Virus record (IMG/VR): IMGVR_UViG_2585427737_000003
Source of the DNA: a virus
Taxonomy: Duplodnaviria > Heunggongvirae > Uroviricota > Caudoviricetes
Reading direction: 5' to 3' (one strand)
Length of the DNA stretch: 27,540 nt
Below, in pieces: positions 6,703-9,700 of this stretch (position 1 is its first letter; the number at the start of each line of letters is the position of its first letter). The translations under genes and the position numbers were made by a program. The notes under the pieces are model-generated. The model saw only the letters and a program-made list of their open reading frames with translations. It was not told where the DNA came from and did no database searches.

Positions 6703-9700
6703 TCAACGAATACTGATGCCGGAAGCGGCTTTTTTGGTCACAATCACCGTACAGTCGGTGATATTGCCTGCCCCCTGATTGCCTTTCTGGAAAATCTTAA
6801 ACTCCAGAGTGACGCTTCCCCTGCCACTCGGCATATCAATAACTGCACTGTAACTACCGGGAATGGCCCCTTTAGTTTCTCTGGATGCGATTAATACGCC
6901 GTTTTTGCGAACTTCAAAACCATAACCCGTGTATCGCGTGCCTCCTGGGTTATTTCCGCTCCCCGGATCGTCATACGCTATACCGTTAAAAATAATGGGC
7001 GGAATAATAATCTGGCGGTCAAAGTTATGATCATCGCTGATGGTGACTGTAACCGTACCGTTTGGTGTTTCCGTGTTACCCCACGTACCGACTTTTTTCG
7101 GGAAGGCTTTTGATACAGCTTTAACGAAATCTCCTCTGACCTGGGTCGCCTCCAGCATGCCCTTAATCGTACAGTTCTGGTTAATCGTGACATTGTTGAG
7201 CGTTCCTGAGTTCGCATTCACACTGCCACTGATATCCGCATTTTTCGCCGTCAGTCTCCCGTCTGATGTCAGGGAAAATGCCGGAGGATTACCGCCGCTG
7301 GTAATGGTGGGGGCCGTCAGGCGTTTCAGGAACACTTCATTCATGAATATCTGATCGCCCTGACCAACAAACATCGGCTTTGTGTTGCCATTCGCAGGAT
7401 TAATCATCGCAATCCTGTCTGCTGCCAGCAGCACCTGACTCTGCATGCCGTCAGGGGTGTTCTCAATACCGGCACCGATACCCGCAATATAAAGGCGTCC
7501 GTCCTGCATCTGCTGCAGCTTCACTGCCCACATGCTGTTCAGGTTATTATTTGTATCAACCTGAACCTTCTGTATCTGCTGGATCGCTGCACTCTGGTCT
7601 TCCAGTTTCTTATTGACGGTCTGTGTTATTTCATTGCTGACATCCGTTATGGACGTCCTGATTTCAGTCAGGTCAGGCGCAAGCTGACCGTTATCAATCT
7701 GCGTCCACAGCTCCTGAGCCAGATGGGTTTTCCCTATCTCGCCTTTGAAAAAATCCAGATAGCCTGATGCATCATCACTCGGCTGATCGACAGCCTCCAC
7801 GAATGCCGATTTGCCAACGGTGTTCACACTGCGAACGTAAAAATAATAATCATGGCCCGGTTTGATATTGATACTGGCGGCTATCCAGTACAGTGCCGTA
7901 CCAAGATAACGCGCGCTGGTTTCAACCTGCCTGATATCCGCAATCCGTTTTTCCGAGAACCAGAACTCAAACTGTACCGTCGGGTCATAAACCGCAAGAT
8001 GCGGCGTGGCGGTTATCTGAAAATAGCCCGGCGTCAGCTCAATCCGCGACGGCGCTGCCGGTGCGGCAATCCGGAACGATACCGACGCCGGATCGCCCTG
8101 CTGCCCCCACGCATTTACTGCCCGGACTGTCAGCCTGTAGTTCCCCAGAGCCAGTTGTGTGAAGCGGTAAGTGGTTTCCGTCGTCCGGGCCGTGCTGACC
8201 AGCCGCTCACGGCCGTCATCCGCTGCCACGGTCAGGCGAAGCAGGAAGCTCACGCCCTTCACCACCTTCGGCGTGTCCCAGCGCGCCAGCACCTGATACT
8301 CCCCGCTGTCTGCGGTGACTTCTGCGGTCAGGTGCTGCACCGCTGGCGGCGTGACACCATTTACCGTGCCGCTCTGGTCGCCGTCAAAGTGCGCCCCGTT
8401 ATCCACGATGGCCTCTTTTTCCGGTACATGCTGCACGGCGGTGATGGCATACGTGCCGTCGTCGTTCTCACGGATACTCACGCAGCGGAACAGGCGCTGG
8501 CGCAACGTCGGCAGCTTCAGCCCCCATACGCTGTATTCAGCAACGCCGTCAGGAACACGGCTCACTTTCACCTTCACGCCGTCGGTGACGGACTGAACCT
8601 CCACGCTGACCGGACTCCCCTGCCCGTCAACCAGGCTTATCAGCGTGGTGCCGGAAGATGGCAGCGTGATTTCACGGTCGAGCGTCAGCGTCCGGGTCTG
8701 GCTGTTTACCGCCAGCACGCGCCCGCCGGTGCGGATACCGGCATAGTCATCATCGCAGATTTCAATGACATCGCCCGGTACATGGCGAAGCCCTTCGGCA
8801 CCCACGCTGAAGTCCACGGTCTGCGTTTCCAGCAGTTCTGTTTTAATCAGCCACAGCCCGGCGCGGTGTGCCTGCCCCCGGCTGGTACAGCCAAAAGCAT
8901 CCATCTTCGTGACGTTACGACCGTAACGGGCAATGGCCTGCGTGTCCTCCACAAGCTCTGTCGCCGTCTCCCAGCCGTTATTCGGGTCAATCCAGTTCAC
9001 CTCAACGGCATTATGGCGGTCCTTCAGGGCGCTGAAGCTGTAGCGGAACGGCGCACCATCATCCGGCATCACCACATTACTGCGGTTATAGGTCCACACC
9101 TTATCCGACGGTCGGTCCTGCACGAACGTCAGCGTCTGCCCGTTCCATACCGGCATACAGCGCATCGCAGAGCAGAAATCACTGAGCACATCCCACGCCT
9201 TACGCTGTGTGGTCAGCCAGGCATTACAGGTGATGCGCGGCTCCGTGCCGCCAAAGCCGTCCGGCACTGACTGGTCGCAGTACTGGCCGATAAGATACAG
9301 CGCCCATTTATCCACATCCACCGCACCAAGACGTTTCCCCATGCCGTAGCGCGGATGGGTCAGCATATCCCACAGACACCAGGCCGGGTTGTTGCTGTAT
9401 GCCGGTTTAAACGTTCCGTCCCAGATACCGCTGTATTGCCGCGTCTGCGGGTTATAATTCGACGGCACCTGCAGAATACGCCCGCGCAGATGATAATTAC
9501 GGCTCACCTGCTGGCTGCCGAACTGCTCCGAGTCCACCTGCACGCCGACCAGTGCCGTGTTCGGGTAGCACTGTTTCACATCGATAATTTCGGTGTATGA
9601 CGACCAGAGCGTTTTGTTCTGCAGCTGGTCTGTGGTGCTGTCCGGCGTCATCCTGCGCATCCGGATATTAAACGGGCGCGGCGGCAGGTTATCCACCACC

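Follow-up and report, generated by a model that had tools for sequence, protein, structure and literature searches.

The virus record IMGVR_UViG_2585427737_000003 (Caudoviricetes), a stretch of 27,540 nucleotides (nt) referred to here as the window, carries on its minus strand the gene J, encoding the tail tip attachment or central tail fibre protein (6703..10200; 1165 amino acids (aa) plus stop, from the open reading frame (ORF) list and its translation). Comparison of this protein with J proteins of lambda, 434 and other phages revealed a three-module recombinant in which a lambda/434-type body is followed by two cassettes, a 'long' shaft (residues 806-950) and a phage 434-type receptor-binding tip (about residues 986-1165), which assort independently among phages. 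The receptor of this J is predicted from the tip to be OmpC and not LamB, and we put the probability of the reading in full, that is lambda/434 body, long shaft, 434 tip and OmpC as receptor, at about 0.8.

Regarding the identity of the gene product, six Pfam domains, each above the curated cut-off, were detected: FNIII-A_GpJ (residues 86-207), Phage-tail_3 (330-498), Ig_J (610-714) and Ig_J_second (716-818), and on the C-terminal side Phage_Tail_Tip (872-1000) and Ig_GpJ_C (1029-1164), which is the full lambda-type order of hub, two FNIII/Ig domains, tail-tip fibre and C-terminal Ig-like receptor-binding domain. The last 300 residues are homologous to the solved gpJ C-termini 8XCJ/8XCK (E 2.7e-95) and 8IYK (E 6.6e-94), and the same end of the protein matched the 'A8 gpJ' structure 9WCA (E 3.3e-103), the structural homology of shaft, prism and tip covering query residues 66-364 of 365. 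The gene is also placed as in the lambda-type tail operon, following H-M-L-K-I and preceding lom-stf-tfa, as judged from the ORF order, from a 99.2% identical prophage, and from lambda and 434.

Lambda gpJ (NP_040600; NC_001416; structures 8IYK, 8XCJ and 8XCK) shares this domain order and has 1132 aa against 1165 aa in the window; of the 33 extra residues, 28 lie in the alpha-helical shaft and a net five in the tip domain. In a pairwise alignment the two proteins have 47-50 identities per 50 residues as far as residue 800, followed by 21, 14 and 30 identities per 50 with 28 gap columns over residues 801-950, a return to 47/50 at residues 951-1000, and 9-24 per block from there to the end. The DNA comparison gave a similar picture, with a match to lambda of 95.4% down to window position 7704, none at 7703-7535, 76% at 7534-7147, and no match from 7146 to the stop. 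An initial annotation of the last 350 codons of J plus stop (6703-7755), made from the sequence alone, had described a mosaic of a lambda-like body and a divergent C-terminus, and this description stands, with 97% identity to lambda at residues 1-805 and 38% at residues 1001-1165; the peptide that it quoted is present in the window translation, and the C-terminal 150 residues, at a measured 38%, are nowhere near more than 90% identical to lambda. The divergence that it placed in the C-terminal ~350 residues is real but does not form a single block, being divided into two segments by a block of ~50 residues that every lambda-like J protein retains; the receptor-binding domain (Ig_GpJ_C, 1029-1164) is confined to the final ~165 residues.

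Three modules and one conserved block could thus be delimited, all on the minus strand. Module 1 (residues 1-805; 7786..10200) comprises the hub and two FNIII/Ig domains of lambda/434 type; module 2 (residues 806-950; 7351..7785) comprises the alpha-helical shaft and the upper beta-prism fibre in the 'long' allele, its domain names being borrowed from the lambda gpJ structure paper (PMC11101478); the conserved block (residues 951-1000; 7201..7350), delimited by its identities, corresponds to the lower beta-prism fibre and is the site of the recombination joints; and module 3 (residues 1001-1165; 6706..7200) is the Ig-like receptor-binding domain of phage 434 type. The GC content drops in steps along the gene, from 58.8% in the body to 50.3% in the shaft and 47.9% in the tip. 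The 28-residue excess over lambda falls within the alpha-helical shaft, in the span of residues 836-866 (7603..7695), as placed by three-way and eight-way alignments.

Identities by module were obtained from a three-way alignment with 434 J (OL657226, 1137 aa), to which the J proteins of phiSTEC1575-Stx2k, Lambda_2E9, PhiR12_1, CP-1639 and an Stx2a phage were then added. The body of the window J is 97% identical to that of lambda, 98% to 434, 99% to phiSTEC1575, 98% to Lambda_2E9 and 74% to the CP-1639 type (71-74% for the Stx/CP-1639 type). Over the shaft and upper fibre the corresponding values are 42%, 43%, 100%, 99% and 60%, with lambda and 434 mutually 99% identical in this segment; over the conserved block they are 94%, 92%, 100%, 88% and 86%; and over the receptor-binding domain they are 38%, 97%, 100%, 43% and 44%. 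The tip is therefore neither of the LamB-binding lambda allele (38% identity to lambda J ~970-1132, with several loop indels) nor of the A8/CP-1639-type allele (44%), the latter being the type to which the CP-1639 and Stx2a phage tip belongs, since it matches the solved 'A8 gpJ' tip (9WCA).

The nearest relatives of the shaft and of the tip are different phages. Phage 434 J, which has the h434 host range and the same J-lom-stf-tfa gene order, shares the body (98%) and the receptor-binding domain (97%) but has a short lambda-type shaft (43% over residues 806-950, without the 28 residues) and differs at five tip residues. Lambda_2E9 J (LR595860, 1160 aa), in contrast, shares the body (98%) and the long shaft (99%) but has a CP-1639-like tip that shares 81% identity with the CP-1639 type and only 43% with the tip of the window J; since it has the shaft in common and not the tip, the two have been exchanged separately. 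All four combinations of shaft and tip occur, namely short shaft with lambda tip in lambda, short shaft with 434 tip in 434, Evi and the sequenced hybrid Lambda h434 imm21, long shaft with 434 tip in the window J and about 13 other phage genomes, and long shaft with near-CP-1639 tip in Lambda_2E9 and Lambda_4B5. These combinations, together with the discordant nearest relatives of shaft and tip, rule out a single exchange joint in J, which is what the initial annotation had assumed.

The joints were placed by sliding-window identity and per-codon differences. On the left, identity to lambda fades between about window 7800 and 7700; on the right, the tract common to the window J and Lambda_2E9 extends to about codon 953-960, while 434 differs for the last time before the 434-like tract at one nt of codon 985 and agrees completely over codons 986-1022. 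An apparent dip in nt identity to phiSTEC1575 near codons 1131-1146 is spurious: it stems from gap columns of the multiple alignment, and the two proteins do not differ there. Homologous recombination would have joined the cassettes, both inside the block of ~50 conserved residues (951-1000) and where FNIII-2 borders on the shaft. Natural J C-termini grafted at lambda residue 964 redirect lambda particles to OmpC (PMC11338833, Brodel et al. 2024); the counterpart of this position in the window J is residue 992, so that the engineered fusion point and the natural joint (codon 986) are about six codons apart. The engineered chimeras A8 and 1A2 (PMC11338833; A8 structures 9WCA/9WCB) thus carry a C-terminus grafted near the natural joint of the window J, but the A8 tip is of the CP-1639/Stx-phage type and only 44% identical to the window tip.

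Regarding the receptor, the tip aligns without gaps to that of phage 434 J, with 160/165 aa and 483/495 nt (97.6%) identical, which identifies it as the h434 allele; the five substitutions relative to 434 are N1047D, R1127G, I1136V, Q1138H and G1143R, and the tip of the sequenced hybrid Lambda h434 imm21 is 96.4% identical to that of the window. Phage 434 uses OmpC, and lambda provided with the 434 tail fibre gene binds OmpC (PMC11101478, PMC3509688); the 434 central fibre has been called OmpC-targeting (PMC12502783), and 434 grows on Escherichia coli K-12 MG1655 through OmpC (PMC11101478). Because the tip is 97% identical to that of 434 and 434 uses OmpC, this is the porin most likely to be bound by the window J. 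The same strain, K-12 MG1655, is the recorded host of mEp332 and PhiR34_1, the tips of which are 100% identical to the window tip. A receptor other than LamB, as suggested in the initial annotation, is accordingly the best reading of the sequence, and among the receptors listed there OmpC would be the one to expect.

The allele is ordinary, and both it and the principle have long been known. Among the matches listed, full-length J was found without a gap in 13 phage records, which represent 11 distinct phages, with nt identities of 94.6-98.5%, the highest value being that to J of phiSTEC1575-Stx2k (98.5%), and the gene differs by 1 nt and 0 aa from that of gpJ WP_000515638.1 of E. coli 602354 (RefSeq genome). 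The J proteins of phiSTEC1575-Stx2k, PhiR42_1, ev243, Kati, PhiR34_1 and mEp332 have 1165 aa, the same three modules, 96.7-98.5% nt identity and a 100% identical tip, and represent the same allele. Regarding the tip alone, nine phage records, including mEp332, PhiR34_1, Kati and ev243, are 100% identical, and 74 records are at least 94.5% identical. A protein search with the C-terminal 385 residues returned more than 8000 near-identical sequences, mostly partial E. coli J fragments, and the top cluster match to these residues (99% identical) has 9,528 member sequences; this search was saturated, so that it demonstrates the abundance of the allele and is uninformative on diversity. A Shigella sonnei J fragment (608 aa), for which no identity value was given, scored 933 bits, against 857 for proteins 100% identical to the query, and may hold a repeated segment. 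An exhaustive tip-only search of 1.84 billion cluster representatives gave 117 relatives, and the identities of full-length tip matches are bimodal, at least 83% (434 type) or at most 50% (other types); the tips form a small family of discrete alleles.

Several observations weigh against OmpC as the receptor or limit its assignment. Literature searches on IdasGreatGrand, Kati, mEp332, PhiR and ev243 gave no adsorption, knockout or receptor data for the exact tip. Receptor and tip allele do not correspond one-to-one, since very different J tips, those of the A8/CP-1639 type (44% identical) and of phi330, also use OmpC (PMC11338833, PMC12502783). Four of the five tip differences from 434 fall within residues 1127-1143, and any of the five may touch the receptor; an AlphaFold2 monomer of residues 800-1165 had a mean predicted local distance difference test score (pLDDT) of 37 and a predicted template modelling score (pTM) of 0.36 (12-row alignment of near-identical homologues), too poor to judge the interface. 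A few substitutions in lambda J can add the use of OmpF. The five substitutions might have moved a 434-derived tip to another porin, such as OmpF or one encoded by a prophage, or might have restricted it to fewer OmpC alleles than 434 recognises, and OmpC-targeting chimeras do vary sharply by allele, 1A2 working on EDL933 OmpC and not on MG1655 OmpC (PMC11338833). We consider such a shift improbable, given the overall tip identity to 434, the fact that the five-substitution version is the commonest form in sequenced phages, including phages on K-12 MG1655, and the lack of alleles intermediate between the 434 type and the others among the full-length matches. Continued use of LamB, with the C-terminal divergence as neutral drift, would agree with the Ig_GpJ_C family and the fibre architecture, both of which are the same as in lambda, but it is hardly credible for a tip with so low an identity to lambda and several loop indels that is nearly identical to the 434 tip, the transfer of which switches lambda to OmpC; moreover, the discrete, bimodal identities and the sharp boundary at codon 986 point to cassette exchange and not to drift.

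In addition, the prophage may be defective, and J may then be unused in the source strain. The window covers the late genes, for head and tail, of a lambdoid E. coli prophage, which run on the minus strand from Nu1 (24974-25519) as far as tfa (1989-2573). Prophages in complete E. coli genomes match 98% of the window at 99.2% identity, among them that of the enterotoxigenic E. coli strain 602354, which is located between ybhC and bioA, the position of the lambda attachment site. Transposase genes flank the window, with an IS1 ORF on the left (48-551, plus strand) and an ORF of the IS66 family on the right (26974-27522, minus strand), both recognised by Pfam; stf ends prematurely; and in the near-identical 602354 prophage a replication gene is interrupted by IS100, ybcN and rha contain copies of IS66, and ren is frameshifted. 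On the other hand, J is intact and its protein is identical to the 602354 copy, the remaining genes for head and tail, Nu1 through tfa, have full-length ORFs, and the early region of the prophage to which the window belongs falls outside the window. That J is an intact but idle relic of a defective prophage, its allele reflecting a past exchange, has somewhat under even odds in our view and is compatible with the assignment of a 434 tip and OmpC as receptor.

The mechanism by which the predicted OmpC-binding fibre would work can be proposed by analogy with lambda gpJ, in the C-terminal part of which two FNIII domains are followed by a shaft of three helices, a beta-sheet prism and the Ig-like receptor-binding domain, with four loops of the latter entering the porin; on binding, the three domains spread, the prism twists, the shaft flips and the tail tip opens, and residues 841-861 change from helix to strand (PMC11101478). 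Three copies of the window J would likewise form the central fibre, their C-terminal Ig-like domains would push loops into the trimeric outer-membrane porin, and binding would be relayed through the beta-prism and the helical shaft, opening the tail tip. The 28 residues absent from lambda and 434 (window residues 836-866) sit just N-terminal of the segment that switches in lambda (841-861). Residues 843-884 have a hydrophobic periodicity of 3.5-3.6 residues, the observed power being reached in 15 out of 2000 shuffles, and low-confidence helices in the AlphaFold2 model at J residues 811-822, 826-836 and 844-877 (mean pLDDT 37) are weakly consistent with a helical shaft. The 28 residues fit a four-heptad lengthening of the helical bundle, which by standard helix geometry would amount to roughly 4 nm. 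The functional meaning of this polymorphism in shaft length is the only aspect of the window J found to be uncharacterised in the searchable literature. It is a speculative suggestion, and one that we hold with little confidence, that the extension is functional and not neutral, tuning the reach of the fibre or the threshold of triggering, for example on cells with long O-antigen, and that, in combination with the five substitutions in the tip, it might shift the range of OmpC alleles or strains infected.

Downstream of J the gene order J-lom-stf-tfa is that of lambda and 434. The gene lom (6033..6632, minus strand), directly downstream of J, encodes an Ail/Lom outer-membrane protein (Pfam Ail_Lom, E 6e-122), and tfa (1989..2573, minus strand) encodes the tail fibre assembly protein (Pfam Caudo_TAP, E 1e-43; 89.7% nt identity to the lambda stf-end/tfa). 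Between them, the side tail fibre ORF stf (2855..5974, minus strand; Pfam phage_tail_N, Gp34_trimer and Collar), a second host-range determinant, ends prematurely at 1039 aa, while the intact homologue in E. coli 602354 has 1132 aa and extends to the position of window 2574. The premature stop results from a patch of ~85 nt (2845-2927, minus strand) with ~27 substitutions and 3 missing bases relative to the 602354 stf, compared with only about 20 differences in the other ~3.3 kb; past the patch the sequence is again homologous, in the same frame, to the C-terminus of lambda Stf. On the coding strand 17 of the substitutions are of A to G, T or C, and this bias towards adenines is reminiscent of mutagenesis by a retroelement, but a reverse transcriptase was not seen. 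A template copy was not found in the window, a 25-mer from the patch was absent from metagenome contigs, and this version of stf was unmatched in complete E. coli genomes, the best full-length matches reaching 86.8%. The patch is possibly an assembly artefact.

Some further features of the prophage were observed. Beyond tfa, at the end of the prophage arm and on the opposite strand, lies a gene encoding a MASE4-GGDEF diguanylate cyclase (584-1915, plus strand; 443 aa; 28-31% GC), which is likely a cargo (moron) gene and is also present in the 602354 prophage, where it adjoins a ybhB-like fragment and bioA. Since the matches to the closest relatives (99.2%) begin only at window position 567, the junction with IS1 is peculiar to this source. 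Near the other end, a DUF1398 gene is found at 26158-26610. The heptamer GGGAAAG, the slippery site of the -1 frameshift that yields the G-T fusion in lambda, is present at 15609-15615 (minus strand), where the tail-chaperone ORFs G and T meet; the motif occurs 4 times in the window against 3.3 expected by chance, and only its position is meaningful. In the 602354 prophage, a 360-aa porin gene annotated ompC (L009, 23459-24541, outside the window) is located between the Q-like antiterminator gene quuD and the genes for lysis. The pairing of a prophage porin with a J tip of OmpC type is reminiscent of PA-2, a lambdoid phage that uses OmpC and whose porin gene, lc, occupies a similar place in the late region; expression of lc lowers OmpC.

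Thus, while the finding on J matters little beyond annotation, the sequence of its tip leads to the prediction that virions of this prophage family would attack OmpC-bearing and not LamB-bearing cells, and the natural joint in J offers a clean example of the fusion site that is exploited in engineering to retarget lambda particles.

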